From a virus: a stretch of DNA of 64,000 nucleotides. The position numbers and the translations under genes are program-made. Below are positions 9,499 through 42,039 of this stretch, piece after piece. The notes below the pieces were generated by a model. That model saw nothing but the letters and a program-made list of their open reading frames with translations, made no database searches and was not told the origin of the DNA. The stretch spans positions 6,120 through 70,119 of IMG/VR virus record IMGVR_UViG_3300037116_000062. The stretch is one strand, 5' to 3'. Position 1 is the first letter of the stretch, and every line of letters begins with the position of its first letter.

Positions 9499-9506
9499 GA
9501 GGGCGT

Positions 9507-10505: not shown

Positions 10506-10537
10506 CGACCATAACTGTGAACCCTAAGAAGGTGAGT

Positions 10538-10636
10538 ATGTGGATGAGGCGTTGCCCAAAGTGCGGCACGGATCTTCGCAAAAAACATCTAGGGGATATC
10601 CTGTGGTGTTTGTGTGGCTGGGTTTGGGGGGACTAA
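10538..10636 (+). CDS. 32-aa zinc-ribbon microprotein (not in the ORF track)
   Basis: MWMRRCPKCGTDLRKKHLGDILWCLCGWVWGD; AAGGTG RBS; TAAATG coupling to the next gene. Confidence 0.55.
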   Translation: MWMRRCPKCGTDLRKKHLGDILWCLCGWVWGD

Positions 10637-12362: not shown

Positions 12363-12369
12363 GGGGACT

Positions 12370-13236: not shown

Positions 13237-13244
13237 GAGGAGTC

Positions 13245-19657: not shown

Positions 19658-20848
19658 ATGGCATCACCTAACCCAACCACAGGCCTGGGCGTAGCGACGA
19701 ACGTAGTTCTCACGGGCACGGGCGTAGTTCGCACAGTCCCCAAAGTCGCGGGCACCCGCGGCGTAAGCGAGTTCTCAGTTTCGATTCCGATCGGCGGCAC
19801 CGTGCAGATCACGGCCCTCCCGTTCGATGACGCGGGCAACGCAGTATCCGTCGGCAATGGCGGGCTGTTGGACGCCCATCTCGGCACCGCTGCGAATTTC
19901 GCCATCCTCGGCGCAAGCGCGGTCACAGGCAGCACTGGTGGCGGATCCACCATTAGCGGCGGAAACCTCGGTATCGCTCCGAACAACTCTTCGTCTGTCA
20001 CGAACTTCCCGCCTTCCGTTCTGGTCGCCCCTGGCGTGGCTCATTACGCTGACGCGGTCGCGACACAGGCGCAGGTAGATTTGGCCGCGGCTATCGTCTA
20101 CTTCCAAGGATTGACCCCGACCCTGTCGGGCCTTGGCAACCTTTCAGTCGGCGGCAACGGTTCGACCGCTGCAACTTACACCGCTGGGAACTATTTCGGC
20201 GCGTCAAGTCTCGACATCCCTACCAGCATCACTCTGGACGCACAGGGCAATCCGAATGCAGTCTTCGTATTCGTGGCGGGCTCGACCATCACGCTGGAAA
20301 GCGGCGCATCGGTCATTCTCGCGAACGGAGCATTGGCCAGCAACGTCTATTGGGTGAACGGATCATCCTTCACTTCAGTCGACGGCGGCGTCTCTGCTAT
20401 GGTCGGAACGATCATGGCGCACACGTCTATCACGCTGGGTGGCGGAACCCTTTCGGGTCGCGCACTCGCGAACGTGGGCGCGGTTACCTTGAGCACGACC
20501 GAGGTTATCACGGTCCCTCCGACGGGCGTCACCCCCGGAGTTGGATACACAAACGCAGTGACCTTCGCCAGCGCACCGATCAGTGTCCCCGCGTGGTACA
20601 GGCCGAGTGCACAGGGCAAGAATTATCCTGGCGCATACATGGCTCCCGCAGTCGTGGACGACAACGACGCGAACCCGTGGACGGTTCGCGGGCGCAGCGC
20701 AGGCCAGACGGTTATTGACTTCCAGATCCCGACCTTCGGGAATACGGAAGGTCAGAGTTTGGTGGACGTGAACGCAGTCATGGACGAAACGTTCATCGAC
20801 ACTATTTACGCTTCTCTGCTCGTGACGGTCACAGGCGGCACAAGCTAA
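19658..20848 (+). CDS. Ig-like decoration protein with an inserted DUF3494 ice-binding domain
   Basis: LGTAANFAILGASAVT, AQVDL, ITLDAQGNPNAVFVF, VILANGALASNVYWV and GRALA; the flanks align with ORF 29757. Confidence 0.85.
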   Translation: MASPNPTTGLGVATNVVLTGTGVVRTVPKVAGTRGVSEFSVSIPIGGTVQITALPFDDAGNAVSVGNGGLLDAHLGTAANFAILGASAVTGSTGGGSTISGGNLGIAPNNSSSVTNFPPSVLVAPGVAHYADAVATQAQVDLAAAIVYFQGLTPTLSGLGNLSVGGNGSTAATYTAGNYFGASSLDIPTSITLDAQGNPNAVFVFVAGSTITLESGASVILANGALASNVYWVNGSSFTSVDGGVSAMVGTIMAHTSITLGGGTLSGRALANVGAVTLSTTEVITVPPTGVTPGVGYTNAVTFASAPISVPAWYRPSAQGKNYPGAYMAPAVVDDNDANPWTVRGRSAGQTVIDFQIPTFGNTEGQSLVDVNAVMDETFIDTIYASLLVTVTGGTS

Positions 20849-20860
20849 ACGGAGGCAACC

Positions 20861-21376
20861 GTGTACAAGTCCGTCTTTACTAAGATCATCGACGGCTTGT
20901 ATTTGGGTGACAAGGAAGGCTTACCTGAAGCAGAGCGGCGGGGATATTCAGTTCTCGCCGCCTGCAAAGATGGCTCACCCGATTGTCACCGCGCGGTCCT
21001 CGGCTACACAGAACTGGGCGCGCCCAAGGGCAAGAACTATTACTTCGTACAGCGTGGCGACCACATGGCGCTGAACCTTATTGACGCGGAGACTGCAGAC
21101 TTCATCCCCGATGAAGCGATTGACGCAGGATTGGACTTTCTTAAACAAGAAAGAGATGCAGGGAAGAAAGTTTTCGTCCACTGCATCGCGGGCCACTCCC
21201 GCTCAGTAGGTATAATGATGCTTTTTCTCAGAGCCATTGGGGAACTGCCTGAAGGATTTCATAGGGCGTTGCACAAGTTCACCGTTCTCTATCCAGAAGC
21301 GGATATGGGAAAAGGAATGTACCAACACGTCCGCCGTCGTTGGGCGGATATGAAAGACAAGTTTCTGTCGGCTTAA
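20861..21376 (+). CDS. Dual-specificity protein phosphatase
   Basis: IIDGLYLGD and the VFVHCIAGHSRS (HCX5R) P-loop. Confidence 0.9.
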   Translation: MYKSVFTKIIDGLYLGDKEGLPEAERRGYSVLAACKDGSPDCHRAVLGYTELGAPKGKNYYFVQRGDHMALNLIDAETADFIPDEAIDAGLDFLKQERDAGKKVFVHCIAGHSRSVGIMMLFLRAIGELPEGFHRALHKFTVLYPEADMGKGMYQHVRRRWADMKDKFLSA

Positions 21377-21434
21377 TTACCCGATGGAGGGCGAGGCTAG
21401 TCCCTCGCCCAACTCTAGACTAGGAGAGATTATG
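21366..21434 (+). promoter_or_regulatory. Hairpin + RBS-pairing pseudoknot leader (copy 1)
   Basis: TGTCGG-CTTAATTAC-CCGATG, then GGGCGAGG-[CTAGTC]-CCTCGCCC; the loop is complementary to GACTAG at the RBS. Confidence 0.65.
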
Positions 21435-21896
21435 CCTTACAAAACCAAAGAAGAAAAAGCTGCGTATGACCATGCCCGAGTAGCACAAAATCGAGAAGAA
21501 AAATCTGCTTATGATAAAAACTATCGTAGCACTCACCGCACGGAAAAAGACGCGTACAGTCGCAAACATCATCTTCAGAAGAACTTCAATCTGTCTTTTC
21601 AAAAATTTTTTGAGATGCTTACTGCACAGGATAATAAATGTGCCCTTTGTAGTGACTTATTCGAAGTAACTCCCGCTATCGACCACGACCATTCGTGTTG
21701 CTCAGGAGTTAAGAGTTGCGGTAAATGTGTCAGGGGATTGCTCTGTCACCGTTGCAATACCGCTCTTGGAAGTTTCAGAGATTCTCCAGAACTTCTTCGC
21801 AAAGCAGCAGATTACATAGAAAGAAAACGAAACGAGAATTTCAATGTCCCCATTTCGCTCGAAAGCACAAGCGGGCTACCTACACAGTCATCCTGA
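21432..21896 (+). mobile_element. Endonuclease VII-family homing endonuclease
   Basis: QDNKCALC, IDHDH and VRGLLCHRCNTALG; AT-rich. Confidence 0.88.
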
Positions 21897-22326
21897 AATC
21901 CTTGGAAAAGAGGGTTTAAAAGAGTGGGACGCTTCGTCAAAAGGTAAGCAATTACCTGAACATGTGAAACAGTACGACCAAGGCGGGGTAGTTTCACCGC
22001 AGAAGGATACCTCAATGACGGGAATATTTGACCAAATTACCAAAGGCGGTGACAAACCGAAAAAAGAAATTAAAGAAATGGTGCATACCAAAAGCCACAA
22101 CGGGAAACACATTGTCACTCATAGACACCATTCGCCCGCGCATCACCCTGACGAAACGCACGTCATGAACGACATGGCGCAGTTGCACAGCCACATGGAC
22201 GCCCACGCTGGTACACCGAACGACGGCGAAGCGGCTCCCGCCGATGGCGCGGCTGCTCCGGCTCCGATGACGGCAGCCCCGTCACCCGCGCCTGCTGGCC
22301 CCGCTGGCCCTGCAATGGGGGCGTAA
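21844..22326 (+). CDS. Hypothetical His-rich protein with a YDQGG motif
   Basis: MSPFRSKAQ N-terminus; His-rich core; P/A-rich tail. Confidence 0.7.
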   Translation: MSPFRSKAQAGYLHSHPEILGKEGLKEWDASSKGKQLPEHVKQYDQGGVVSPQKDTSMTGIFDQITKGGDKPKKEIKEMVHTKSHNGKHIVTHRHHSPAHHPDETHVMNDMAQLHSHMDAHAGTPNDGEAAPADGAAAPAPMTAAPSPAPAGPAGPAMGA

Positions 22327-22327
22327 T

Positions 22328-23023
22328 ATGGGAATCTATGACAAAGTAGTCAACGCCGCGAAGGGTGCTGCCGCCGCAGTGAAAGCGGGCAACTCTGAGA
22401 CGGAAGGTATTGGAAGCGAACTCGCCGAGCGCGCGAAAATGAATCGCCTCGCGATGGGAAAGAGCGACGAAGCAAAGCCTGTCGACAAGGAATCAGTCAG
22501 CCCGACCGCTGGCGGAAACTCCCCCTACGGATCCCGTAAGGGTGAGAAGAAATTGGACACGTCCTATCTGGACAAGCCCACCGCGGTCAAAGCCCCCGTG
22601 TACGACAAGGGCGGCAAGATTATCGGGGGAACCAACATCCCAGCCCGCGTTTATGATAAGGGCGGCAAAGTCGATGTGAATGACGGCAAACACCAAGTCG
22701 CGATTCTCAAGGAAGGCGAACGCGTTCTGACTGAGAAGCAGGACAAAGAGTATCAGAAGACGAAGGGCGAGCACGCCGAGCCCGACGCGGACGACTATGA
22801 CGACGGCGGAAAGGTTCACACGCCTGAAGAGAAAAACCACTTCGCCCGCTCTATGAACCATCTGAACGCAGGTGGGTTGCACCGTCACCTGGGCATTAGT
22901 GAAGACAAGCCGATTCCCCACTCTAAGAAAGTGGAAGCGTCAAAATCTGACAACCCACACGTTGCTGCGATGGGACGCCTTGCGGTTGCGATGTCGGGAT
23001 GGAAACACCCCAAAAAGAAATAG
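22328..23023 (+). CDS. Hypothetical protein with three YDxGG motifs
   Basis: YDKGG twice and YDDGG; AILKEGERVLT; GGLHRHLG module. Confidence 0.7.
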   Translation: MGIYDKVVNAAKGAAAAVKAGNSETEGIGSELAERAKMNRLAMGKSDEAKPVDKESVSPTAGGNSPYGSRKGEKKLDTSYLDKPTAVKAPVYDKGGKIIGGTNIPARVYDKGGKVDVNDGKHQVAILKEGERVLTEKQDKEYQKTKGEHAEPDADDYDDGGKVHTPEEKNHFARSMNHLNAGGLHRHLGISEDKPIPHSKKVEASKSDNPHVAAMGRLAVAMSGWKHPKKK

Positions 23024-23034
23024 TCGGAGGATCT

Positions 23035-25026
23035 GTGAACGTAAACGAACTGGTAGGCTTAGTCCAGAAACACAAGAACGACAAAAACTACCAGTTCCGA
23101 GACTGGTCGTGGGAGCAGATTGACGCTGCCGCAAAGACCAGTTTCGATCGAATCACACCCGATCAGAAAATCCAAGTCATGAAGGTCTGTGCAGCCTATG
23201 GGCTCACGGACTCGAAGCAGATCGTCCGCTTCCGATTCATGGCGCAAACAAACCTTTTCTTTCTCTGCAAGCTGCTGGGGACTTACAAGGACGTCTCGGA
23301 CAAAGAGTATGTCTGGACGGATGGCAAGGTTCACAATACGCATGAGGAAATTTGCAATTCTTTTTTCGTAGAAAAGAACCCGACGTTCCCCTCATTCAAA
23401 GAGTTCGCGGCCCAGTACATCGATAAGAAAGAGCGTCTTCTGCTCGTACCCCGCGGCGGCTACAAGTCGTCGATGGATATGGCGGATTGCGCCCAGTGGG
23501 TGATCAACTTCCCCGAAGTGACTATCCTCGTACTCTGCGGAGTCCTCGCCCTGGCGAATGACTTCGTCGGCGAAATCAAGGGACACTTCACGTTAGAGCA
23601 AGGCGGGTCCGCGGGGCTGTTTGGTAAAACCCCTCTGCGCCCGAGAACGATGCACAGTGGTACTGGATCCATGTTTCAAGTCCTGTTCCCAGAGCACTGC
23701 ATCGCGCCTGACACAGGCAAGAGTGATGAATATCAGACCCCAGCCGTCGCTGTCCGAGAGAAGGAAGGCACTGTATCTGCTGCCTCTATCGAACAGAGTC
23801 TGACAGGCTGGCACGTGTGCGTTCTGAAACTGGATGACGTTGTCACCAACGAAAACTCCCAGACTGTTGACCGCATGCGGAACATCAACAAGCAAGTCAG
23901 CATCAACCAAGCCATGTTGCACCCGTACGGATTTTACGACAAGATCGGAACGTGGTACGACACTGAAGATACTTACGGTCAAGACATCAAGAGTTCCAAG
24001 AAGTACGCCGAAGACGGCGAAGACTTCCCGATGAAGATCTACATCCGTGCCGCGTGGTGGGCAACGGAAGACGCGATCAAGCAAGGTAAGATCGCGGACG
24101 AGATGGTTGAGACGGATTACAACTATTGGTTCAACGATCCGACCAACGCATCCTCGCTGACGTTCAAGTTCCTCAACCACAAGCGGAAGACCGATCCGTG
24201 GTACGCGATTAAGTACCTCAACGATCCGACGCAGATGCATGTGATCAAGTTCCCGCGAGAACTCCTCGTGCGGCGCACTATCAACGCGGTCGAACTCCCC
24301 AGCACAGGGATGATCGTCTCCTGCGTTGACACGGCCTACTCGACCAAGACTTGGGCGGATTACACGGTCATCATCACCTCGCTGATTTACGGCGGGCGCT
24401 TCTACATCATTGACATGAAGCGTGGGCGATACAACGAATACGAACTCCCCGCAATGATTGCAGCGACGGCCCAGCAATGGAAGCCGAAGCGAATCTGCAT
24501 CGAAGAAACTGGAGCGATCAAGTACATCCAGCGGGAAGTCTATCGTGAGATGGACAAACTGAAGGTGCGGGTTCCAATCGAACTCGTCCCCCTCGGTCAA
24601 GGCAGCAAGGCCACTTCGAAGAAAACGAAAGCAGGCCCCGTCCTCAGGTTCCTGGGAGACGACAGGCTGCGGTTCATCAACACCTGCCCGTTTCTAGAAG
24701 ACCTGTACGACGAACTCTCCAAGTTCGGTACGGCGGCAAGCACCCACGACGATATCGTGGATGCTCTGTCCATCCTCATAAATCAGTTCTCATCCTACGC
24801 TGACATCGAAGGAAAGATGACGGCGTCCGGCGCGGGGTTTACCTCCGACCAGAAGATGCAGAACGCGCACAATCTGATGCACTGCGACGGTAAGTACGGG
24901 AAACTGAATCAGCGGAACGACGTTCAACTGGAGTTCCCCGACCAATCACCGCAGTCCCTATCAAGAGACGCGGCATTAGATGCGTATGAGGCATCCCAAG
25001 ATCCATTGGGCGAACTTTTTGGTTAA
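23035..25026 (+). CDS. terL: Terminase large subunit
   Basis: LLLVPRGGYKSS Walker A, VLKLDDVV Walker B, VDTA..ADYT and HDDIVDA nuclease motifs; GTG start with GGAGG. Confidence 0.9.
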   Translation: MNVNELVGLVQKHKNDKNYQFRDWSWEQIDAAAKTSFDRITPDQKIQVMKVCAAYGLTDSKQIVRFRFMAQTNLFFLCKLLGTYKDVSDKEYVWTDGKVHNTHEEICNSFFVEKNPTFPSFKEFAAQYIDKKERLLLVPRGGYKSSMDMADCAQWVINFPEVTILVLCGVLALANDFVGEIKGHFTLEQGGSAGLFGKTPLRPRTMHSGTGSMFQVLFPEHCIAPDTGKSDEYQTPAVAVREKEGTVSAASIEQSLTGWHVCVLKLDDVVTNENSQTVDRMRNINKQVSINQAMLHPYGFYDKIGTWYDTEDTYGQDIKSSKKYAEDGEDFPMKIYIRAAWWATEDAIKQGKIADEMVETDYNYWFNDPTNASSLTFKFLNHKRKTDPWYAIKYLNDPTQMHVIKFPRELLVRRTINAVELPSTGMIVSCVDTAYSTKTWADYTVIITSLIYGGRFYIIDMKRGRYNEYELPAMIAATAQQWKPKRICIEETGAIKYIQREVYREMDKLKVRVPIELVPLGQGSKATSKKTKAGPVLRFLGDDRLRFINTCPFLEDLYDELSKFGTAASTHDDIVDALSILINQFSSYADIEGKMTASGAGFTSDQKMQNAHNLMHCDGKYGKLNQRNDVQLEFPDQSPQSLSRDAALDAYEASQDPLGELFG

Positions 25027-25035
25027 GGGAGTGAT

Positions 25036-27165
25036 ATGGATGACGCTTTGATTGTATCTGACGGCAATGCCGATCAACACCTGACGACCGATAGCGTCAA
25101 CAAAGACGGCATGATGAAGACGGTCGACCTAGACCTGTCCCTCGTCGTGCAGTCCGCGAGGATGTCCAAAGCGTTCATTTCGAACAAGCAATGGACACTC
25201 CTGTGGCGCGACGCTGACCTACTGTTCCAATCACCCCGACCGATGTCGACGTACGAAAATACGTACGTCCTTGAACCCAACGTTCAGCGGTTCACGGTCG
25301 CGAAGGTCTGCAACGCGGTAGTTCCGCAACTTTACAAGGGTCTGTTCTACGATGACCCACCGATGTTACTCCGCCCGCGTCCTGGCACAAGTCAGAAGAC
25401 GATCGACGCGAAGACAGCGATGTTCTCGTTCGTCCTCGACCAATGCGACTTCAAGAACCACGTCAAGTGGGGCTTGGAACAGATGGCCCACCAGGGAACG
25501 GGAATTTTCAAGTGGGGTTACGACTGGAAAGAGATTACCACTATCAAGCGCAAGGCGACTACGATCAAGGTAGAAGCCCCGCAGCCTGATGGGACCACAG
25601 ACACTATTCACATCCCGAGTGACGAATCGCCGAGTATTACAGAAACGAGCAAGGTTCTACCCTTGCCGTTCTTCGAGTGGCGGCCCTTGGACAAAGTCCT
25701 TGTCGACTCGCAACTGGCGGTCAGCGATATCCGCATGGCGCGCTGGGTGATCGACGTCCGATACATGGACTGGTATCAGCTTAGTGACATCAAGAAGGCG
25801 ATCGACGACGCGCGCGAAGCTGGTGAGACAGGCGCGGCAATCGAAGGATGGGACTTCCCAGACGACGCTGCCCTCAAGGCGATGTGGGATCGGCCATTCA
25901 ACGGCACGACCAATGAGGTGACGCAAGCCTCCTACATGGAAGGCATCATCCATCACAGCGAGAAGGAAAATCAGGACACCAGTCCCGACCCTCTCCGCCG
26001 CAAGATGGAAGTCCTCGAATACTGGGACAAGGGACGAAAGATCCTGGCCCTGAACGAAGAGAAAGTAATCTTCCGCGGCAAGAACGAATTCAAACGAATC
26101 CCGTTCCTGAGTGCGAACTGGTGGAACCGACCCCGTGCATTTTACGGCATGGGACTTGGGCTCATCGTGGGACAGAATCAACGCGTCGACCAAGGCACCA
26201 TTAACGCCATTCTTAAGATTCTGTCGTATGGCGTCAACCCTATCTATCTCCGCAATCGATCGGAGAACGCACCAACTCAGACCATCCGCACCAACCTCGG
26301 CAAGATCATGTCGGTGACGGATGTGAAAGAATCATACGCCCTACTTGAGCAACCCAAAGTCCCCTCGGACATCTGGGGAGCGATCAAGGAAAGCGAATCG
26401 GCCACCGAGTCTTCCTCGGGCGCAGACCAAACGCTCGTACAGGGCAGTTCGGCTGGACCCCGTGCAGGTATGGGACGCTCCGCTACAGGCGCAAACCTGA
26501 TGGCTGGCGCGTCCGCAACCCGACTGGACGGCCCGCTCGATAACTTCATCGAGCAGGTGTTCAAGCCGTGGTTGAGCATCATTGACATGCTCGTGTTCAA
26601 CTTCATGTCGGATGCCGCCATCCTCCACGTCCTGGGCAAGGAAATGGGTACGGAGTTCCTAACGGACGCCGACAGCCCGTTCCAGATCCAAGACTACCAC
26701 GATGCTCAGATCGAGTACGAAGTGCTTGCTGGATCCTCACTCGCTGCAAAGCGGACGATGGCCCAGAGCATGGTCATGCTCACCCAGATCCTCGACAACC
26801 CGAACATCCAGTCAATGCTGGCCGAAGCGGGCAAGAAGATCAACATCGAAGCAATCATCTCGATGTGGCTCGAAGCAAGCGAATGGAAGAACAAGAACGA
26901 CATCGTTGTTCCGATGTCCCCCGCGGACATCCAGAAGCGGGATGCGAACTCAAAAGCCGCACTCCAGCAGCAACAGATGCAAATGAAACAGCAAGGCGAC
27001 CAAGCAAAGTTCGCCGAGAAACAACAGTTGGAAGACCAAGCAAGTGACAACCGTATTAAGCGCGACATCACCCGAGAAGCAGCGAAGGCATCTTCGCTGA
27101 GTCAGACGGTTGAAGGCGTGCCGAGTACGGGTGGCTTGCAAGGTCAGATGCCGACTGTTGAGTAA
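25036..27165 (+). CDS. Portal protein
   Basis: 709 aa directly after terL; GTGIFKWG, FYGMG, RSATG and a Q-rich C-terminal barrel. Confidence 0.88.
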   Translation: MDDALIVSDGNADQHLTTDSVNKDGMMKTVDLDLSLVVQSARMSKAFISNKQWTLLWRDADLLFQSPRPMSTYENTYVLEPNVQRFTVAKVCNAVVPQLYKGLFYDDPPMLLRPRPGTSQKTIDAKTAMFSFVLDQCDFKNHVKWGLEQMAHQGTGIFKWGYDWKEITTIKRKATTIKVEAPQPDGTTDTIHIPSDESPSITETSKVLPLPFFEWRPLDKVLVDSQLAVSDIRMARWVIDVRYMDWYQLSDIKKAIDDAREAGETGAAIEGWDFPDDAALKAMWDRPFNGTTNEVTQASYMEGIIHHSEKENQDTSPDPLRRKMEVLEYWDKGRKILALNEEKVIFRGKNEFKRIPFLSANWWNRPRAFYGMGLGLIVGQNQRVDQGTINAILKILSYGVNPIYLRNRSENAPTQTIRTNLGKIMSVTDVKESYALLEQPKVPSDIWGAIKESESATESSSGADQTLVQGSSAGPRAGMGRSATGANLMAGASATRLDGPLDNFIEQVFKPWLSIIDMLVFNFMSDAAILHVLGKEMGTEFLTDADSPFQIQDYHDAQIEYEVLAGSSLAAKRTMAQSMVMLTQILDNPNIQSMLAEAGKKINIEAIISMWLEASEWKNKNDIVVPMSPADIQKRDANSKAALQQQQMQMKQQGDQAKFAEKQQLEDQASDNRIKRDITREAAKASSLSQTVEGVPSTGGLQGQMPTVE

Positions 27166-27215
27166 GACTCACTGCTGGGCAACAGGATAAACTGCCCAAA
27201 TTTTTCGGAGGAGAA

Positions 27216-27554
27216 ATGCTGAAACCTTCCACAGAACCAAACATGTTCCGACCGACGTTCACCCTCGACAGTCGCCAACTCGGCGTGATGGCGGCAGCGA
27301 TCAAGCAGGAGTGGTTCGATATCCTGCAGCGAATCATGGAGGAAGAACTCAGACTCATGAACGTGAACATGATGAACCAAGGTAGCGACGAAGCTATCCT
27401 GCAGGCCCATAAGTGGTCCCGCGGGGCGAGCATGTTCTACTCAGGCGTCATGGATCGTCTGCAGGAGATTACGCAAGTCGACACATACAACAACTCAGGC
27501 GTCGGAACCCCCGAAAACCCTGAGACGTTGGCACTACCGCAAGAGTTCGAATAG
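27216..27554 (+). CDS. Hypothetical head-module protein
   Basis: GGAGG RBS; lies between portal and scaffold. Confidence 0.7.
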   Translation: MLKPSTEPNMFRPTFTLDSRQLGVMAAAIKQEWFDILQRIMEEELRLMNVNMMNQGSDEAILQAHKWSRGASMFYSGVMDRLQEITQVDTYNNSGVGTPENPETLALPQEFE

Positions 27555-27563
27555 GAGGAGCCT

Positions 27564-28643
27564 ATGCTTACGATTACAGAATTGAACAACATGGACGCGG
27601 ACGTTTACCGCGAGAACCTGAAGGATCCCGCATTCATGGAAGCGGTCAACCGCCTGAATACCCAGGCCGCGCCCCCACCTGCTCCCATCGTTGAGACGGT
27701 TGAGCCCGTAGTCGAGCCCGCCGCCCCCGCAGCGGAGCCCGTCATCCCCGAGTCGCGCTACGAGTATCAGCCGACCGACGAGCAAGGTCGCCCACTCGGC
27801 GGCAAGCAAGTTATTAAGTACACGACCCAGGAAGACTTCGCGGAGAAGTTCGCCGCGCAGAACACCCTCCTGATTCGCCAACTCCGCAAGGTCAACAGGG
27901 AGCACCGTCTGGGCATCGCCCCGGAAGAGACGGTTCCCGACGCGTCCGAGCGGTTCAACGGCGACCTTCTTGAACTGAAGCCGAAGTCGTTGACAGTGGA
28001 CGAGCGATTCCAACTCGCCCAGGATCTGACCGATCCCGAGAAGTTCACTGCCGCGCGCGACAAACTGATCGAGTCTGGACTGGGGATTCCCCTGGCGGAC
28101 CTCGCGAAGGCGTTCAACGAACAGAAAATGGCCACACTCCAAGTGATGGCGAAACAAAATTTTGACATCTTCGCAGCGAACACGCCCGATTTCCTGAGCG
28201 CCGATGTGGAGAACAGACAGAACCTGACGGATTGGATGTTCAAGAAAGGGCTGGCACCCACCGTCGAAAATTTTCAAGCAGCCTACTCAAGCCTCAAGTC
28301 AGTTGGATTACTGAATGAGGCTCCGATCGTGCGATCGGAACCCGTACCCGTGGTGGAACCCGCTCCGAAAGCGCAGGAGCCAGTTGTAGCAGAGGTCCGC
28401 ATTGACCCGACGCCGCAGCCGCAACCAAAGCGACATAGTCAAATACCGTCTGGCTTGAATGACCGAGTGTCTTCAGCAGCGGGCCCCGCGCCCGTGGACG
28501 CTTCTTTGACTCTTGCTGACATTGACCAAATGACTCCAGACGATTACAAGGCGAAGATCAGAGATCCGCGCTTTGCAAAACTCGTCAACGAACTTGAACA
28601 GGCAGCCCTGCTCAAGCGGAGACAGCGTCTCGGTCAAGTCTAA
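27564..28643 (+). CDS. Capsid scaffolding protein
   Basis: P/E/A-rich and helical; repeated LTxxxxxxMxxDxY helix at both ends; directly before the capsid gene. Confidence 0.7.
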   Translation: MLTITELNNMDADVYRENLKDPAFMEAVNRLNTQAAPPPAPIVETVEPVVEPAAPAAEPVIPESRYEYQPTDEQGRPLGGKQVIKYTTQEDFAEKFAAQNTLLIRQLRKVNREHRLGIAPEETVPDASERFNGDLLELKPKSLTVDERFQLAQDLTDPEKFTAARDKLIESGLGIPLADLAKAFNEQKMATLQVMAKQNFDIFAANTPDFLSADVENRQNLTDWMFKKGLAPTVENFQAAYSSLKSVGLLNEAPIVRSEPVPVVEPAPKAQEPVVAEVRIDPTPQPQPKRHSQIPSGLNDRVSSAAGPAPVDASLTLADIDQMTPDDYKAKIRDPRFAKLVNELEQAALLKRRQRLGQV

Positions 28644-28658
28644 AAAGGATAAACCTGT

Positions 28659-29690
28659 ATGAGTTTTTCTCCTAGCGGCAACCAACTCAGTAACCTGCCC
28701 CAGTCCACGGTGAAGTACTACGACAAAAGATTCCGTGAGAACCTGAAGGCGCAGACCCCCTTCGTCCGTTGTTCCGAGCGTTTGGAACTGCCGATGAAGT
28801 CCGGTAACCAGTACGAACTGTTCATGTACGTTCCGCTGGCTGCCAACACCACGCCGACCACCGAAGGCACCGTGGGTTCGTCTCTGAGCATCAACGTGCT
28901 CACGAACACCGCGACCATCGGCGAGTACGCGGATTACGCCAACTTCTCGTCCTTGTCTCTCGCTACCGCGATCGACAACACGGTCGAGAACGTCGCGAAG
29001 GAAATGTCCTATCGCTTGGGCGAGTCCCTCTCGGCTCTGGTGCGCGCGACTGCAGACGGTGCGAACAGCATCGACTCCAGCGTGCTGACTCAGCTTGCTG
29101 CGTCGAGCACCTCCAGCTTCACCGCCCTGTCGTTGTCTCAGATTCGCAACAGTGTCCAGTCTCTGGCTGGCCGCAGTGTGCGTCCGTTCAACGAGGCGAA
29201 GAAGACCTTCGCTGGCGTGATCCATCCGTTCGCTCTCGGCGATGTCCTCGCCGACAACAGCAACGACTCCCCCATCGACATCCTGAAGCACACGCCTCAG
29301 GGTCAGATGAAGATGGAAGACCTGATCTCGGTCGATCTGACCGAAGTCATCGAACTGCCCTCCACGGGCGTGGAATTCCTGCAGACCAACTTGGTCACGC
29401 AGACCACGAACTACAAGGGTCAGACTGGTCTGACTGCTCTCCGTACCTACATTTTCGGTAAGGACGGCATTTTCTCCATCAACCTGGGAGCCACCAACGA
29501 CACCACCTTCGGTGATGGCGATTGGCGCAACATTAAGTGCAACGTGGTTCAGAACGCCGAGCCGACGGTTGCCGATCCCGAAGGGTTGATCCCTGGCTGG
29601 ACCTCGTATCGTGTGCACTTCACCACGAGCTTGGGCCCAGACACCACCATCCGCATCCGTGAGATTGATGCGGCTTCGGCCATCAGCTAA
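28659..29690 (+). CDS. Major capsid protein (N4-gp56-like)
   Basis: 343 aa; LPMKSG, TEG, GVIHP, TYIFGKD and ADP motifs; followed by a terminator. Confidence 0.85.
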   Translation: MSFSPSGNQLSNLPQSTVKYYDKRFRENLKAQTPFVRCSERLELPMKSGNQYELFMYVPLAANTTPTTEGTVGSSLSINVLTNTATIGEYADYANFSSLSLATAIDNTVENVAKEMSYRLGESLSALVRATADGANSIDSSVLTQLAASSTSSFTALSLSQIRNSVQSLAGRSVRPFNEAKKTFAGVIHPFALGDVLADNSNDSPIDILKHTPQGQMKMEDLISVDLTEVIELPSTGVEFLQTNLVTQTTNYKGQTGLTALRTYIFGKDGIFSINLGATNDTTFGDGDWRNIKCNVVQNAEPTVADPEGLIPGWTSYRVHFTTSLGPDTTIRIREIDAASAIS

Positions 29691-29697
29691 GTGAACC

Positions 29698-29726
29698 TGG
29701 GGCGGTAACCCCGCCCCTGTTCTTTA
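29698..29726 (+). terminator. Rho-independent terminator
   Basis: GGGGCGG-TAAC-CCCGCCCC followed by TGTTCTTT. Confidence 0.65.
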
Positions 29727-29756
29727 GTTTCAGCATTTGCTGAAGAAAGGTTTTTC

Positions 29757-30299
29757 ATGGCTAATCCTTCTCCCCAACCCACCCCCACGAGCGGCGTGGG
29801 CACTGCAGCGTACGTCCAAGTTAGCGGAACGAACGTCGGCAACTGCTCACAGCCAGTCGCAGGGACAGGGCAGGGCACGGGCGCGATTCCTTCCACGAAT
29901 CACCCTGTTGCGCAGTACGCACTCACGTTGAGTCTGGCAGCTAAGACCATCAACGGGGTCGCGTATGCTGCCACCTGCCAGTTGACCACGACCATTAAGG
30001 ACGTGGCAGGCACGACTTTCACGGGCACCAATAGCCCTGTGTACAAGTCGTATGCGGATCCAGTCGGCGCTTGGTACAACCCGAGCAACGTTCCCGCCCC
30101 CGCGGGCGCGCCCGCATACAGCGGTCTGATCGCTTCCGTCAGCGGCAGCGGTTTGATCACTGGTTTGCACGTTGGCCAGTGCATCGTTGAAGTGCAGTAC
30201 TCGACTTTCGACGATGTGCAGAACCCCGCGACCAACACGGGAACGGGCAATCCGTGGGCGATGATCTATGCACAGATCGTCGTCAACGTTGTGCCCTGA
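29757..30299 (+). CDS. Ig-like (Big_2-type) capsid decoration protein
   Basis: IASVSGSGLITGLHVGQCIV; directly after the capsid gene. Confidence 0.65.
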   Translation: MANPSPQPTPTSGVGTAAYVQVSGTNVGNCSQPVAGTGQGTGAIPSTNHPVAQYALTLSLAAKTINGVAYAATCQLTTTIKDVAGTTFTGTNSPVYKSYADPVGAWYNPSNVPAPAGAPAYSGLIASVSGSGLITGLHVGQCIVEVQYSTFDDVQNPATNTGTGNPWAMIYAQIVVNVVP

Positions 30300-30314
30300 G
30301 CACCAATTCGACAT

Positions 30315-30392
30315 CTTCGGACTAATTACCCGAAGCCAGAGCGACCAGCACCTAGAATGCTGGTCGCTCGCTCTTTTCTAGGAGAGAATATG
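30315..30392 (+). promoter_or_regulatory. Hairpin + RBS-pairing pseudoknot leader (copy 2)
   Basis: CTTCGG-ACTAATTAC-CCGAAG, then a 12-bp stem whose loop CCTAGAA is complementary to TTCTAGG at the RBS. Confidence 0.7.
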
Positions 30393-30809
30393 CCCCGAAA
30401 CACTGAAGCAGGAAGGCTCGCGTACAACAAATACATGCGAGAATATCGAAAGCGCCCCGAACAAGCCGCTAAAGAAACCGCACGAAAAGCGGCTTGGATA
30501 GCGGCAAACCCAGAGAACGCGGAGAAACACCGTTTGAGCAGGTTTCGCGCCGCGAGAAGGGCCAGATGGGGTAACCCAGAAGAGTACGCCGCACGTCTCG
30601 CTAAACAGAATGGTTTGTGTGCGCTCTGTGGCGAACCTTTTGACGACACTAAGTTAGGCAGCCCTGTTCAAGATCACGACCACGATACTGAAGAACTAAG
30701 AGAATTTTTGCACTGCCGTTGTAACCTTGCGATAGCAAATCTGCTGGATAGCCCTAGCGGATGTCGCAAAGCAGCGGAGTATTTAGAGAAGCACGGGAGG
30801 AGAGGATGA
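30390..30809 (+). mobile_element. Endonuclease VII-family homing endonuclease
   Basis: QNGLCALCG, QDHDH and REFLHCRCNLAI. Confidence 0.85.
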
Positions 30810-30907
30810 AAGATACGAAGGCAGTAGTCAGAACTGTGTGCTCCATCGTGTCCGTCATTCTGCAGTCGATCGGGCTTTGGTTCATCATCACGCATACAGC
30901 AAAGTAA
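30806..30907 (+). CDS. 33-aa single-TM microprotein (not in the ORF track)
   Basis: MKDTKAVVRTVCSIVSVILQSIGLWFIITHTAK; GGAGG RBS; ATGA overlap. Confidence 0.5.
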   Translation: MKDTKAVVRTVCSIVSVILQSIGLWFIITHTAK

Positions 30908-30922
30908 CACCAAGGAGGACAC

Positions 30923-31198
30923 ATGTCGGAGGAGACATTCACGATTCAGGCTCTGCTCGAATCGAACAACATTTTGCAGGAAGAAGTCAGCCGTCTGCGC
31001 AACAGCAATAGGATTCTGCGCACAGTTCACAGCGCACTGCGCGCGGCCAACGAGAGCCTACGGGCCCAAGTCGAGTTGGCGAGGTTCAACGATGAGACAT
31101 TCAAAGCGTTTTGTCAAGGTGAGTTTGATGCCCCATTTACCGAGTACGCGGAAGGTGGATTACTGACCGCGTCAAGTGTAGTGGAGCCCCTGGTCTAG
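30923..31198 (+). CDS. Coiled-coil hypothetical protein
   Basis: AAGGAGG RBS; heptad pattern. Confidence 0.65.
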   Translation: MSEETFTIQALLESNNILQEEVSRLRNSNRILRTVHSALRAANESLRAQVELARFNDETFKAFCQGEFDAPFTEYAEGGLLTASSVVEPLV

Positions 31199-31353
31199 AA
31201 CGGGGAGGAAGCGTCAGTGACGAGCGGAACTTATAATCCCGCGACGGGCTGATATGAAGGCATGAAAGGGCGGCTACCTCCAGCTTGACGAGTTGATATC
31301 TCGCCAATGGAGACTTATCGGGCTGGGGGAGCCACTTACAATTCGGAGGAGCA

Positions 31354-31548
31354 ATGAGAATTCATTTCGAGAGCAAGGTCCAGTGGCAGAAAAGATTCAC
31401 GGGCACTGCCGTAGTCGGCGTATTTCTTATGGTATACGAAGGTCAACCGTCTATCGCGGACCCCGCGGGCATAGGCCTAAAAGGATTCAAGATAGGGGCT
31501 AGTGTCGGTTTCGGCACACTCTCTTGGGAAGTGAAATGTGCCAACTAA
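31354..31548 (+). CDS. Small hypothetical protein
   Basis: GGAGG RBS. Confidence 0.45.
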   Translation: MRIHFESKVQWQKRFTGTAVVGVFLMVYEGQPSIADPAGIGLKGFKIGASVGFGTLSWEVKCAN

Positions 31549-32224
31549 CGCGGAGTACCTGGAGCGTTGGGAAAACGCCGCGCCAACCGCAGTAGTCAGC
31601 GACACACCAGTAGAAGCCAAGCGCACGAACGGGGACAACGGACTCCAGAGTTACATGGACGACCGCGAAGACCCCGCACTGCTGGAAGCCATCGCGGAGT
31701 ACGCCGAACGAATCAGCGATGCAAAGCCCACTCAGGAAACTCTTGAGACGTACGCCGAGCGCAAAGAATACAACGACAACGTCGCCCGAGAATACCAGTG
31801 GGTGACCCCCGATGAGTACGCAGACGGCGGCGCTCGCATCGGAAGGATCATGCACTCATCTGCGTTCATCATCCGCCTTCAGCGGGCGGGAGTGAAGTGC
31901 TGGTATCGTAGGCATCCACAGCCGGGGAAGATGACTCTCGTTGTCCAACCGAAGCAAGCGACTCTACCGCCCGAAGTGGGCTGCTGGGTTCAGGGCGGCT
32001 TCATGCCTGAACTGAGCATCATGCGATTCGATGATCACGGAGTTCCAACCACGGAGAAGAACCGCGGCTGGCGAACTTGTCTGTTGCAACTGATCCTCAA
32101 GAGTCACATCAGCCAGCAAGTGGCTGACGAAGTTTTCGGAAAGCCCCCAACCACGGAGGCGTTCCACCGATACAACAACACCCTCCGAGTATTTCGGGAT
32201 CAGGGTGGAAGACTAGCAAGTTAA
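31538..32224 (+). CDS. Hypothetical protein
   Basis: 228-aa ORF with genome-typical codon usage. Confidence 0.7.
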   Translation: MPTNAEYLERWENAAPTAVVSDTPVEAKRTNGDNGLQSYMDDREDPALLEAIAEYAERISDAKPTQETLETYAERKEYNDNVAREYQWVTPDEYADGGARIGRIMHSSAFIIRLQRAGVKCWYRRHPQPGKMTLVVQPKQATLPPEVGCWVQGGFMPELSIMRFDDHGVPTTEKNRGWRTCLLQLILKSHISQQVADEVFGKPPTTEAFHRYNNTLRVFRDQGGRLAS

Positions 32225-32234
32225 AAGGAGGAGT

Positions 32235-32912
32235 ATGTCTAACGAATTGAAGAAGGAACTATCCGAGATTGAGAAGATCCAACTGGAAGCCGCGCAGATG
32301 GCTCTCGAAACCGCCAAGATGGACCGCGAACTGAAGAAGGCGGACTTGGAAGCGAAGCAGCTTGAAAAGCAGGAGCGAGAATATCACATTCGGGATTTGA
32401 AGGGCAGTCTTGCCAAACGCGATCTCGAAGAGATGCAGTTGAAGGAAAATCGCCAGCAACAGGGCGCGACCTTCGCCCAGCAAGCGGCCACTGACAAGTA
32501 CCGTTTCAGCATCTGCACCCACAAGAAGGGCGGAACGGCCAACGCGCGCGACACCCGCTGCCTGACCACAGGCGGCAACGGTAACCAGTACGCAATCATG
32601 AAGCATCAGATGATCAACGGCGACATCTGGATCCGCTGCCTCCGCTGCGGCAAGACTTGGTGCCCGCCAGTCGAAATCAACTTCTATTTCGACAAGCAGG
32701 GTCGTCAGGTCGCCCCGATCGACGGAATCTTCAGCAAGGAAGCGTTCAACGCGGCCACCGTCGAGTACCAGAAGGCGACGATGTTTGAGACGAACAATAC
32801 GATGTCAGGATCCGTGCAAGTTCGATTCTCCCGATACGATGCTGTCTCAGGCAAGATTGTGGACGGAAGCGACGTCTATCGTGAGTCCATCGCCAGCACC
32901 AACCTGCGCTAA
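32235..32912 (+). CDS. Coiled-coil + zinc-binding (CxH...CxxC) protein
   Basis: CTHKKGG and CLRCGKTW; AGGAGG RBS. Confidence 0.7.
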   Translation: MSNELKKELSEIEKIQLEAAQMALETAKMDRELKKADLEAKQLEKQEREYHIRDLKGSLAKRDLEEMQLKENRQQQGATFAQQAATDKYRFSICTHKKGGTANARDTRCLTTGGNGNQYAIMKHQMINGDIWIRCLRCGKTWCPPVEINFYFDKQGRQVAPIDGIFSKEAFNAATVEYQKATMFETNNTMSGSVQVRFSRYDAVSGKIVDGSDVYRESIASTNLR

Positions 32913-32972
32913 ACATTGTGCACAAACCCCTGAAAAAAGGGGGTTTGGTGCATAAGAATATAAAAGGACATC

Positions 32973-34040
32973 ATGGGCAACTCCAGCTACCGACTTCAGG
33001 ATCTCGTAGATATAGCAAGATCGCTAGGCGATCTCGCACCCACACTCCCTACAGGCGGAGCATATGAAACCGTCGCCACCTCGGCGGCCAATGACGTCAT
33101 GACTAGCATGGTCGCGGGGAGCAGCAAGGGTTCCCCGTTCAATTTCAAGTGGAACCGCGTCATCATCCCGCCGTTCTTCATCAACTCGTGGCAGCAAGAT
33201 TACGCTTCCTCAGTTGTGAACCTCGGCTGGCTCGAATCGTGCGGCGCGTACAACACGTCCACCACTCAGACACCGAAGCCCTATCGCGTGGTTGAAGTGA
33301 AGCGGGACGTCCTGATTACGAACGCCCAGACTGCGTCCACCGCGAAGATCCAGTGGGAGCAGAACAACTCGCTCACATTCGGAACGTGGGGACAGTCTAC
33401 CCCCAACAGCATTACGGGGATCCCAAACCCTGGCCCGGGCGCGGTGTACCAGAACCCGCTGGGCATGATTTCTCTTCCCTCCAACCCGATCACTCAGGTG
33501 AAAGACGCCTTCGGCAACCTGTGGATCGTGACAGGCTACGGAACCTGCGGCGGAGTCAACCCTTTTCTCACGAATCTCAATCCCGTATTCCCCGACATCA
33601 ACAATCCGACCACCGTCGCGACGACAGCCGCGGACGGGGGTGTCACTTGGACCGCGGTCAACCCGTTCGGACAGGGATTCCGTCTCAACCCGATGCCATC
33701 TCAGACAGGCCCCGTGTGGGAAGTCTGCCCCGTTGGCCAAGCCAAGATCGCGAAGTTCACATCCCTCGGTCAGTATCTTGAGCCGATCCCAGATGACTAC
33801 TTCACGTATTTTCAGAACGGGTTCTTCGCCCAGTGCTATCGTCGATCGCCCGATCCGAAAGTAAGATCCAAGTTCAAAGACGAGTGGGCGATTTTCATGA
33901 AGTCGCTCGATGAGTGTGTCGACCAAGCAAGTAGAGAACAGGACGACTGGGGATTCGTCCCGACCTATAACGTGATGGACACGGGCTGGGCGTTTAACCC
34001 AGTCAACCCCGCAATGCCTTATGGGCCCTGGGCGGGCTAA
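32973..34040 (+). CDS. Putative head-tail adaptor protein
   Basis: AANDVM...FNFKWNR...QQDY...PIPDDY pattern; position. Confidence 0.6.
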   Translation: MGNSSYRLQDLVDIARSLGDLAPTLPTGGAYETVATSAANDVMTSMVAGSSKGSPFNFKWNRVIIPPFFINSWQQDYASSVVNLGWLESCGAYNTSTTQTPKPYRVVEVKRDVLITNAQTASTAKIQWEQNNSLTFGTWGQSTPNSITGIPNPGPGAVYQNPLGMISLPSNPITQVKDAFGNLWIVTGYGTCGGVNPFLTNLNPVFPDINNPTTVATTAADGGVTWTAVNPFGQGFRLNPMPSQTGPVWEVCPVGQAKIAKFTSLGQYLEPIPDDYFTYFQNGFFAQCYRRSPDPKVRSKFKDEWAIFMKSLDECVDQASREQDDWGFVPTYNVMDTGWAFNPVNPAMPYGPWAG

Positions 34041-34050
34041 GGAGTACCAG

Positions 34051-34446
34051 ATGGAACAAAGTATCATGGATTCACAACTTGCTGCATTGAAGGAGTTGAC
34101 AGATACGCGGTTCAAGGCATCGGAAACCGCAGTCAACACCGCGCTGGCAACACAGGAAAAAGCCGTCAACGCTGCACGCGAGACGGATCAAAAGGCGCTG
34201 GCTGCTGCATTGCAAGCGTCAGAGAAAGCCATCGCCAAAGCCGAAGCCGCACAGGCCGAAGTCAACAAGGTAATCGCTGAGTTACAGAAAGACGTTATCT
34301 CCCTCCGGGAATCCCGATCGCAGGGCACAGGAAACGACGCCGCTAAGAAGGGTGATAAGCAGCAGTCCAACTGGACGGTAAGTCTGTTGGTGACCATTGC
34401 TTTGGCGCTGATCGCAGTGGCTTTGAAGATGTTCATGCTTAGATAG
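34051..34446 (+). CDS. Coiled-coil protein with a C-terminal TM helix
   Basis: Ala-rich heptads; hydrophobic C-terminus. Confidence 0.65.
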   Translation: MEQSIMDSQLAALKELTDTRFKASETAVNTALATQEKAVNAARETDQKALAAALQASEKAIAKAEAAQAEVNKVIAELQKDVISLRESRSQGTGNDAAKKGDKQQSNWTVSLLVTIALALIAVALKMFMLR

Positions 34447-34451
34447 GAGGA

Positions 34452-34883
34452 GTGATGTTCAAATTTCTTCGTAAGACTTTCCTGTGGGTGCTCTTAGCCC
34501 CGCTCGCATTCACGTGGCTTGGCGCACTATCCAATCAGGTAGTTTTGTACGTGAATCACGACACCTTCCCTGTAAGGTGGAATGACTACAAGATATATCA
34601 ATACAAGTTCGATCTTGAAACCAAATCCCAGAGTGAGGATGAGGACGTTGCTCTACAAGCCCAGATGAGTTTGGTGGCTCTTAAATCGGGATATCTCGAC
34701 GATACCCACGTCATCATGACGAAGGATACGCACCTGAACCTTCTCGCGGATTGGTTTGACCTCCGCGGCGACGGGACTTACAGCATCGGTGACGGGTTGA
34801 TCTACCTCGGCGAATGGCTGAGTAGTTTTGCCGTCTACGTCTGGGGCGCGCTACTACTCAACAGCTTAAGGAAACAAGAATAG
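34452..34883 (+). CDS. DUF5317-like membrane protein
   Basis: NQVVLYVN..FPV, LADWF and YSIGD with flanking TM helices. Confidence 0.55.
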   Translation: MMFKFLRKTFLWVLLAPLAFTWLGALSNQVVLYVNHDTFPVRWNDYKIYQYKFDLETKSQSEDEDVALQAQMSLVALKSGYLDDTHVIMTKDTHLNLLADWFDLRGDGTYSIGDGLIYLGEWLSSFAVYVWGALLLNSLRKQE

Positions 34884-34893
34884 GACAATCCCG

Positions 34894-35838
34894 ATGGCGA
34901 TCTCTACCAAAACGATTAGCAACACGATTGACTTTTGCAAGCGGCTGAGTTTTAACCGCAACCCCGTCATCGGGAATTCTCTTGAGCCCGCGCTCACAGC
35001 GGCACAGATTGTCATGCAAGTCATCCTTGGCCCGCCGTTCGAATGGTGGTGGAATAACGAGGAACTGGTCTTCACGTGCAACCCTGTTCCGAACAGTGCT
35101 ACGAGCACCGTGGTTAGCATCGTCAGCGGCACAATCACCGTGACCGCTGCGAACACCTTCTCTACAGGCGACTTAGTCCTGCCGAAGGGTTTTGTCACGC
35201 TCACCTCTTTGAACGGTTTACTGCTGGAGGTTGTAACCGCGACCGCGTCCACATTTACCGCAGCCGTAAACCTCCCGAACGGAACCGATACTGCGGGGAC
35301 GTTCACGAACATCACCACTCAGGACTACCCCGTTGCCACACCAGAATTCTCACACATCGAGCATGCCTCGGTTCTGGACATTGACGCGACAGGCAAGCCA
35401 CTGAAGTGGTACGAACTGACCGTCAAGAACATGCTGTCTCTCGAAACTTCGGCCAACCGTCCTGAGTTCATCTCTCCCCACACGGAGAATGGGCAGGGCG
35501 TAACCGTGTTCCGCGTGACATCTGCTCCCGATAAGAAGTACCCCATCTCCATCCACATCCAGAAGGCCGCGCCCACCGTCACCAGTATCAATCAGACATG
35601 GGCACCCATCCCCGACTTCATGCAATACATCTACACCTGGGGATTCATGGCACTCATCTGGCAGTTTGCGGACGACCCGCGCGCGACCTACGCGAACAAC
35701 AAATTTGTTGCGGGCATACTCGCTCGATCCGAAGGTTTGGACGACGAACAGAAAAATATTTTTCTAAATAATTGGGATGAGATGCGAATGAGTTTCGGCC
35801 CGATGAAACAGCAAGGTATCGCAGCGCGAGGACAATAA
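34894..35838 (+). CDS. Putative adaptor/tail tubular A-like protein
   Basis: PFEWWWN, TQDY, APDKKY and PIPD; resembles ORF 32973. Confidence 0.6.
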   Translation: MAISTKTISNTIDFCKRLSFNRNPVIGNSLEPALTAAQIVMQVILGPPFEWWWNNEELVFTCNPVPNSATSTVVSIVSGTITVTAANTFSTGDLVLPKGFVTLTSLNGLLLEVVTATASTFTAAVNLPNGTDTAGTFTNITTQDYPVATPEFSHIEHASVLDIDATGKPLKWYELTVKNMLSLETSANRPEFISPHTENGQGVTVFRVTSAPDKKYPISIHIQKAAPTVTSINQTWAPIPDFMQYIYTWGFMALIWQFADDPRATYANNKFVAGILARSEGLDDEQKNIFLNNWDEMRMSFGPMKQQGIAARGQ

Positions 35839-35849
35839 GGAGTTCCCGT

Positions 35850-36146
35850 ATGCCCCAGCTAGTCACTGTGTATGGGGGTTCCTTTCAGGACCCTAGTGGC
35901 AACCCGCTAACAGGCGGATTGACTTGCAGACTCGTGCAGGACATCGCCGAGAGTTCCAACCAAATCGCTGCAGGCCGATGGACGAAGCTCTCGCTCGATG
36001 CGAACGGGAATATATCCCCGAGCCCGGGGGCGAAACTCTGGGGTCCCGCTCTCTACGACGTGATTGCATACACCTCGCAGGGTCTGGCCGCGTGGAGTGG
36101 GCAGATTACAGTTCCAGACGTGACATCATTCAGTTTTACCCCATAG
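35850..36146 (+). CDS. Tail-fibre anchor-like small protein
   Basis: GGSFQDPSGNPL...LDANGNI...WG, paralogous to the N-terminus of 36154. Confidence 0.6.
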   Translation: MPQLVTVYGGSFQDPSGNPLTGGLTCRLVQDIAESSNQIAAGRWTKLSLDANGNISPSPGAKLWGPALYDVIAYTSQGLAAWSGQITVPDVTSFSFTP

Positions 36147-41992: not shown

Positions 41993-42039
41993 TTGACAAT
42001 CTTCTCCTATTGCTGTAAACTTAAGTAATAGGAGAAGAT
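41993..42039 (+). promoter_or_regulatory. sigma70 promoter embedded in an RBS-sequestering hairpin
   Basis: TTGACA-17-TAAACT; ATCTTCTCCTATTGCT pairs with AGTAATAGGAGAAGAT. Confidence 0.75.

Follow-up and report, generated by a model that had tools for sequence, protein, structure and literature searches.

A covarying match between a hairpin loop and the Shine-Dalgarno region in a candidate leader RNA of phage nuclease genes

Homing endonucleases have to be tolerated by the genomes that they invade and, to our knowledge, the T-even device of a hairpin combined with a late promoter is the only solution of phages that has been worked out. In preQ1-II, SAM-II and the ribosomal protein S15 mRNA a pseudoknot helix occupies the ribosome-binding site; these elements are responsive to a ligand or a protein, and their sequence is conserved. 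For phage endonucleases, the available part of a published account names I-TevI, I-TevII, I-TevIII, segB and mobE of Aeh1 as genes controlled by RNA structures that sequester the ribosome-binding site (PMC2988022). The T-even leaders are presented there as simple nested hairpins with an internal late promoter, just upstream of the gene, that bury the Shine-Dalgarno (SD) sequence in cis on read-through transcripts and let late transcripts escape (PMC2988022). The same excerpt describes, for the free-standing endonuclease gene seg43(25) of Aeromonas phage 25, a very stable hairpin immediately upstream of the ribosome-binding site and excluding it (PMC2988022).

Here we report on a leader found at positions 30315 to 30392 of a window of 64,000 nucleotides of phage DNA, i.e. 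bases 6120-70119 of a 70,119-base IMG/VR record estimated to be 73% complete. Going by the sequence alone, it resembles the T-even leaders in that the SD is base-paired in a stable cis structure just upstream of the gene, which would bury it on read-through transcripts, and a further short pairing (HP3) can cover the rest of the SD. It differs from them in that the predicted partner of the SD is a hairpin loop further upstream, the main covarying pairing being a pseudoknot and not a simple nested hairpin that includes the SD, and in that a further hairpin (HP1) precedes. The leader revealed no internal promoter or other relief device; 24000-36000 has a single sigma-70-like match, on the minus strand, and none on the plus strand, a count made for a site type from which the phage's own promoters may differ. 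The very stable hairpin is shared with the seg43(25) leader, for which a loop-to-SD pairing is absent from the available part of the description, the only basis of this comparison (PMC2988022).

Anatomy of the leader and of its second copy

The letters of 30315-30392 were re-read and match exactly the parse of an earlier sequence-only reading, which had taken the stretch for the second copy of a nuclease leader. We refer to it as copy 2. The features of the region are the following.

28659-29690, major head protein gene (PHROG major head protein)
29757-30299, plus strand, 180-aa ORF from the ORF list, stop TGA at 30297-30299, 15 nt upstream of HP1
30315-30335, plus strand, HP1 of copy 2, 6-bp stem (30315-30320 with 30330-30335) and 9-nt loop ACTAATTAC (30321-30329)
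30339-30369, plus strand, HP2 of copy 2, perfect GC-rich 12-bp stem (30339-30350 with 30358-30369) and 7-nt loop CCTAGAA (30351-30357)
30370-30375, plus strand, pyrimidine-rich spacer GCTCTT, the U-rich tail of HP2 and loop 3 of the proposed pseudoknot
30376-30382, plus strand, TTCTAGG, exact reverse complement of the HP2 loop CCTAGAA, covering the first three SD bases
30380-30384, plus strand, Shine-Dalgarno sequence AGGAG as read from the sequence, 5 nt upstream of ATG 30390
30390-30809, plus strand, 139-aa gene of the Endonuclease_7 family, a putative free-standing homing endonuclease (Pfam PF02945, 44.3 bits against a cut-off of 23.6, E 1.7e-11; PHROG endonuclease VII)

The complementarity between loop and SD region is thus a direct observation. 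The HP2 loop contains the anti-SD letters CCU, and its duplex with TTCTAGG has an energy of -7.6 kcal/mol. HP2 itself, which starts 3 bases past HP1, amounts to -22.0 kcal/mol; its 12-bp hairpin occurs a single time in the window and was obtained in 0 of 100 shuffles. In folds of the region the spacer can alternatively form HP3, in which CUCU (30371-30374) pairs with AGAG (30383-30386). The 78-nt stretch as a whole folds at -34.3 kcal/mol compared to -17.0 +/- 2.9 for shuffled sequences (z -6.0, 0 of 200 as good).

A leader of the same plan precedes the nuclease gene at 21432, as the earlier reading had it. It has a different loop with a different complement:

21367-21434, plus strand, leader copy 1
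21367-21385, plus strand, HP1 of copy 1, loop CTTAATTAC, with the stop TAA (21374-21376) of the upstream gene inside the loop
21389-21410, plus strand, HP2 of copy 1, 8-bp stem and loop CTAGTC (21397-21402)
21418-21423, plus strand, GACTAG, complement of the loop CTAGTC
21422-21426, plus strand, Shine-Dalgarno sequence of copy 1, followed by ATG 21432
21432-21896, plus strand, 154-aa Endonuclease_7 gene behind the leader (PF02945, 69.4 bits against a cut-off of 23.6)

The nuclease proteins behind the two copies are just 29% identical; the HP1 loop and the SD region hardly differ, and CTAGGAGAGAnTATG in the SD region is exact in both. Within loop and partner the central CTAG is constant between the copies and the flanking pairs change on both sides (UC:GA versus AA:UU, plus an added C:G). 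With just two or three differing pairs, and with CTAG being a common palindrome that matches itself anyway, compensation judged from these two copies alone is suggestive, and the data could be put down to a chance resemblance of two intergenic hairpins. Relatives were collected for this reason.

Covariation of the loop with the Shine-Dalgarno region

In IMG/VR 256 relatives of the capsid protein were found, with identities of about 80-90%, and the sole cultured relative found is the Tunturiibacter phage Tunturi 3 (capsid 80% identity), in the accessible part of its description a 97.6-kb podovirus whose host is an acidobacterium from Finnish soil (PMC11924767). The leader plan recurs in Tunturi-3-like peat phages. 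Tunturi 3 itself is without the leader and possesses one Endonuclease_7 gene, which overlaps its upstream gene; a weak covariance-model match in its genome (E 0.07) was rejected as a leader.

For the comparison the window and 13 related records fetched whole were combined into a set of 14 genomes (1.17 Mb), and both strands were scanned for a GC-rich hairpin with a perfect complement of its loop within 14 nt, a start codon 1-13 nt further on and an ORF of at least 40 aa. This yielded 19 true reverse-complement matches, compared to 6, 2 and 8 for the reversed, complemented and same-sequence decoys, so that at 6 nt the controls are not clean. At 7 nt or more, 13 true matches stand against 0, 0 and 1. 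The scan replaces an earlier decoy control on redundant loci, which had been weak (14 versus 6, 1 and 5) and was redone on the whole genomes.

A second approach was blind to the pairing, as leaders were taken by HP1 alone and the loop was ignored. Sixteen HP1-type hairpins were found, 14 of them with an adjacent HP2, and in 13 of these 14 the whole loop has a complement downstream, i.e. a second helix can be built from the loop and bases 3' of the hairpin as in an H-type pseudoknot. The complement measures 6 nt in three leaders, 7 nt in nine and 8 nt in one. If loops are combined with the downstream regions of other leaders (178 mismatched pairs), the complement has 0-5 nt in 173 and 6 nt in 5 pairs, and never 7 nt or more. 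Matched pairs also have the longer HP3-type complement (mean 5.0 nt, versus 4.0 nt in mismatched pairs).

A covariance model of HP1, HP2 and HP3, which leaves the loop pairing unmodelled, gave 18 matches at E up to 1 on the collected loci; the complement is present in 16 of them and absent in one, and one match is unrelated. In a lossy search of 42 further records the model retrieved three new leaders, all with the whole-loop complement and two with new loops. The 19 leaders of the HP1 class display 15 different loops. The same-site nuclease ortholog in L101 has a different HP1 loop, a different HP2 stem and a loop CCTATA with its own complement TATAGG.

The formal pair count was limited to 5 of the about 20 leaders, picked for gap-free alignment and equal geometry, as MAFFT alignments were not in structural register. 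In these five leaders 75 of 75 cells are paired, each of the 15 pairs being present in all five, and six of the seven pseudoknot pairs show a change on both sides. None of 500 shuffles was as good, and with a slid partner 36-51% of the cells were paired. Across the leaders HP2 has energies from -13 to -25 kcal/mol and the loop duplex from -5.4 to -8.5 kcal/mol.

Complements in 13 of 14 matched pairs against none at 7 nt or more in 178 mismatched pairs, together with the decoy and shuffle controls, reduce the probability of a chance resemblance to practically nothing, and we regard it as ruled out by the architecture scan, the mismatched-pair comparison and the formal pair count. That the loop covaries with the SD region is read directly from the aligned leaders. 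The compensatory changes claimed by the sequence-only reading, suggestive in the window, thereby become a strong case for covariation across related phages, the predicted loop-to-SD pairing being kept through two-sided changes. Compared to preQ1-II, SAM-II and the S15 mRNA, the pairing bases here change freely between copies and no ligand pocket is apparent.

The position of the covarying partner is of importance as well. The loop complement spans the first 1-3 bases of the SD and 4-6 bases upstream of it; it reaches into the SD in every case, and its short spacing to the start codon is fixed. This is an argument against a role of the inverted repeats in DNA, where they might form a cruciform or provide the nuclease or recombination with a site for recognition or insertion. 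Enzymes of the Endonuclease VII type cleave branched DNA, which would fit such a role, as would the palindrome in the HP1 loop (TAATTA, or TTATAA in relatives) and the fact that the cassette takes the place of a hairpin at an empty site (see below). The match between loop and downstream region is, however, no cruciform, and one and the same leader stands before Endonuclease_7, GIY-YIG and HNH-type genes, for which a common DNA target is not to be expected. Counting G-U versus A-C appositions in HP2 gave no hint as to the strand or to RNA versus DNA (9 G-U in 163 pairs, A/C at the stem base in 8 of 16). We consider a DNA-level role highly unlikely.

The loop type of HP1 with covarying stems is present in 12 strong copies in the 14 genomes. 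Its 9-nt loops (21372-21380, 30321-30329 and relatives) consist of 2 nt, a 6-nt palindrome and 1 nt; the palindrome is TAATTA in most copies, including ACTAATTAC of copy 2, and TTATAA in L101, L115 and L119, a change at two positions that could pair mutually. Judging from this one paired change, the conserved loop could serve protein recognition or RNA-RNA pairing. The layout, with a 6-nt palindrome flanked by 2 and 1 bases, presumably resembles that of the HIV-1 dimerisation hairpin. Inspection by eye around the start codon revealed no conserved stretch that could partner the HP1 loop. A second set of leaders (L107, L113 and the second copy in L101) carries the loop TTAGCG instead.

Comparison with known elements by search gave little. 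At the gathering threshold Rfam has only a permuted tmRNA match in the whole window, and in the 3.2-kb pieces around both copies nothing from Rfam scored at E up to 1. Cultured phages gave no megablast match to 20800-32000, the exact pattern TAATTACCCGA-N15-45-CTAGGAGAG had 0 matches in viral contigs, and in the literature we found no description of a loop-to-SD pseudoknot leader for homing endonuclease genes. We regard the predicted leader as a real, covarying and uncatalogued RNA family, common to unrelated nuclease genes in many related phages, that merits a curated RNA model. The tmRNA match lies on the minus strand at 118-293 and has 53.2 bits (gathering threshold 47); ARAGORN reports neither tmRNA nor tRNA in the window, and the match may be a phage-borne tmRNA-like gene or a false one.

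Genes behind the leader and the site of insertion

The association with nuclease genes can be stated as plainly as the complementarity. All 16 matches to the full architecture lie upstream of nuclease-family ORFs (13 with Pfam Endonuclease_7 and 3 with PHROG endonuclease VII), and further leader-bearing loci are a GIY-YIG homing endonuclease gene in L101 and an HNH-type endonuclease gene in L119. Only 16 of the 87 Endonuclease_7-type ORFs in the 14 genomes carry the leader, and two of the eight nuclease genes of the window do; the other six are without it. To carry such a nuclease gene therefore does not require the leader.

Two loci deviate. In L211 (16409-16472 of G003) HP1 and HP2 stand without a downstream loop complement before an unclassified 320-aa gene, which did not appear nuclease-like to us. 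In L088, from an unrelated phage, a similar hairpin plus complement precedes a probable head-tail connector gene. The module of L211 is flanked by two unclassified genes, neither of them nuclease-looking; it could be left over from a nuclease cassette that was lost, or be used there independently.

The gene behind copy 2 was proposed to be a mobile-type nuclease, and two results bear this out: the Endonuclease_7 match of 44.3 bits exceeds its cut-off of 23.6, and the gene is missing at the same site in a close relative. It is 68% identical over 80 aa to the same-site gene in L101. The relative without the gene is L123, whose capsid protein is 99% identical over the part present. Between the stop of its 180-aa-type ORF and the SD of the next small ORF L123 has about 59 nt, compared to about 496 nt (leader and nuclease gene) in the window. 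These 59 nt hold a 12-bp hairpin with a 7-nt loop followed by CTTTTTT; similarity to the window restarts at GGAGGAGAG, the end of the nuclease ORF in the window and the SD of the small ORF. Presence and absence at one site among close relatives, i.e. window and L123, are in line with mobility. As the best reading of these sequences we favour a mobile cassette, made up of a nuclease gene and of this stretch as its 5' leader.

As to the position of the cassette, it was said to lie behind the capsid and decoration genes. The capsid part is confirmed by the PHROG major head protein; the supposed decoration gene, the 180-aa ORF at 29757-30299, is without a Pfam or PHROG family match, and its name finds no support there. 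The accompanying idea of the sequence-only reading, that holding down a toxic nuclease would pay most behind such highly expressed genes, is kept here as a conjecture.

DNA contigs from four peat metagenomes contain leader and gene unchanged, and among them no contig joins across the site without the nuclease gene. Contig breaks near 30303-30355 differ among the metagenome runs and prove nothing. The RNA runs found contain only 5-6% of the sampled words of the stretch.

The small ORF behind the nuclease gene encodes a hydrophobic, membrane-type protein. In the window (30797-30809) its ATG at 30806 overlaps the nuclease stop TGA (30807-30809) and its SD sits in the last codons of the nuclease gene; in L123 the same SD and ATG stand directly behind the terminator-like hairpin.

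The nuclease load of this lineage is very high. It reaches 14-15 Endonuclease_7-type genes per 97-kb genome: G003, G005 and G013 have 14-15, 11 and 9-10 such ORFs (two of these records have about 97-99 kb, one has 58 kb), and 85 Endonuclease_7-type matches were counted in 24 related records. In L134 (3546), L151 (3567), L153 (2063) and G013 (minus strand, start 25109 in the scanned orientation) a gene of about 207 aa directly follows the capsid gene; its product combines an N-terminal helix-turn-helix with a PHROG endonuclease VII match. It sits behind a hairpin of 9-16 bp with a 7-nt loop matching the SD region and without the HP1 type of the window.

Three GIY-YIG-type genes of the window (11248-11736, about 14472-14971 and 55081-55608) share a 56-nt repeat with 77-100% identity. 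The one that was scanned matches a PHROG homing endonuclease family, and the pseudoknot leader is present in none of the three. Genes of this type are interspersed in a sugar-modifying cluster at 8722-16561, which by PHROG comprises a glycosyltransferase, two nucleotide-sugar epimerases and an aminotransferase.

A proposed lock of the ribosome site

We consider it probable that the stretch is a portable leader which locks the ribosome site through a loop-to-SD pseudoknot and thereby keeps nuclease production low. That the structure forms in the mRNA and represses translation is what we infer from the pairing pattern. HP2 would fold first, and its pre-formed loop would then pair with 6-8 bases that overlap the 5' part of the SD. 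The result would be an H-type pseudoknot with HP2 as stem 1, the pairing of loop and SD region as stem 2 and a connecting loop of 6-8 nt. In an alternative state the pyrimidine spacer would pair with the remaining SD bases (HP3), so that the ribosome-binding site would be hidden in both states. Transcripts entering from the strongly expressed genes upstream would then yield little nuclease.

In such a pseudoknot all loop bases pair, so that loop 1 would have 0 nt; loop 3 has 4-12 nt over stems of 8-16 bp. For copy 2 this means bridging a stem of 12 bp with only 6 nt in loop 3, and some of the end pairs may not form. By geometric reasoning, as opposed to computation, HP2, HP3 and the full loop pairing should be unable to coexist with a linker of 0-3 nt, and for this reason we read the structure as an H-type pseudoknot with HP3 as its alternative state.

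HP2 also has the look of an intrinsic terminator. Copy 2 and 16 of the 28 tabulated leaders share with this class the GC-rich stem, the short loop and the U-rich tail (5 T or more among the 8 nt that follow the stem). In 24000-36000 the best terminator-like site is formed by HP2 of copy 2 together with GCTCTTTTCT as its tail (12 pairs, 8 of them G-C, at least 5 T in 8), and the gene-less L123 has its 12-bp hairpin with T-rich tail at the same place. Were HP2 primarily a terminator, closing the transcript of the capsid module and insulating the inserted gene from it, a secondary or minor role would be left for the match of loop and SD. Termination, however, offers no reason for the loop bases to covary with a downstream SD. 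The U-rich tail is moreover absent in 12 of the 28 leaders, and all 12 keep the loop complement. Copy 1 is among them: with 2 T in 8 it lacks the tail that, along with a GC-rich stem and a loop of 3-8 nt, marks a terminator. Termination in place of the lock therefore appears rather unlikely to us. The two functions are compatible, and termination is better regarded as an addition than as a replacement: as HP2 of copy 2 stands where L123 has its terminator-like hairpin, transcriptional insulation may be part of the function, and read-through would also be cut wherever HP2 has a U-rich tail, which applies to copy 2 and to roughly half of the relatives.

A further question is whether the proposed lock is a constant brake or a timing switch, opened by a phage factor on HP1, by RNA cleavage or by ribosomes that finish the upstream gene. 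The conserved 9-nt HP1 loop with its covarying stems would suit a recognition site. The stop codon of the upstream gene is found in the leader or within about 50 nt of it, 12-52 nt before HP2 in 20 of the 24 leaders examined, and T-even nuclease hairpins are open in late transcripts according to the available part of the account cited above (PMC2988022). At a distance of 12-52 nt, on the other hand, a terminating ribosome would reach HP2 in few cases only; a promoter-like site was not found in the leader, and a partner of the HP1 loop was not seen by eye. Timing as the main function is in our opinion quite unlikely.

Leaving the switch aside and returning to the portable lock, one may go further and picture the leader as a self-contained 'expression governor' that moves along with unrelated homing endonuclease genes (Endonuclease_7, GIY-YIG and HNH) and is exchanged between them in a large group of uncultured phages from soil and peat. 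HP2 would stand in for the resident terminator, which the insertion destroys, the loop would lock the ribosome site, and HP1 would be a recognition or RNA-RNA pairing site that times the opening of the lock. In that case the leader would be more than a passive brake and represent a class of regulated cis-RNA that is so far uncatalogued. We offer this wider picture tentatively and hold it to be possible with a limited likelihood.

Beside the T-even device the leader would be a second solution to the problem of tolerating a homing endonuclease, one that is compact, shows an unusually clean covariation and serves unrelated nuclease families. If it represses translation, this would help to explain how many nuclease genes can reside inside highly expressed structural modules, and it would be a small natural lock of a ribosome site with a specificity set by 6-8 freely exchangeable bases.

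The window also contains a leader of the classical T-even form. It belongs to a third Endonuclease_7 gene (ATG 42040, 197 aa) and occupies 41993-42042. The SD is buried in a perfect inverted repeat of 13 bp (41999-42011 with 42027-42039), and a sigma-70-like site TTGACA (41993) - N17 - TAAACT (42016) is so placed that the inhibitory arm would be missing from transcripts started there, as it is for T4 I-TevI. Endonuclease_7 genes in G016 and G003 are preceded by similar arrangements.
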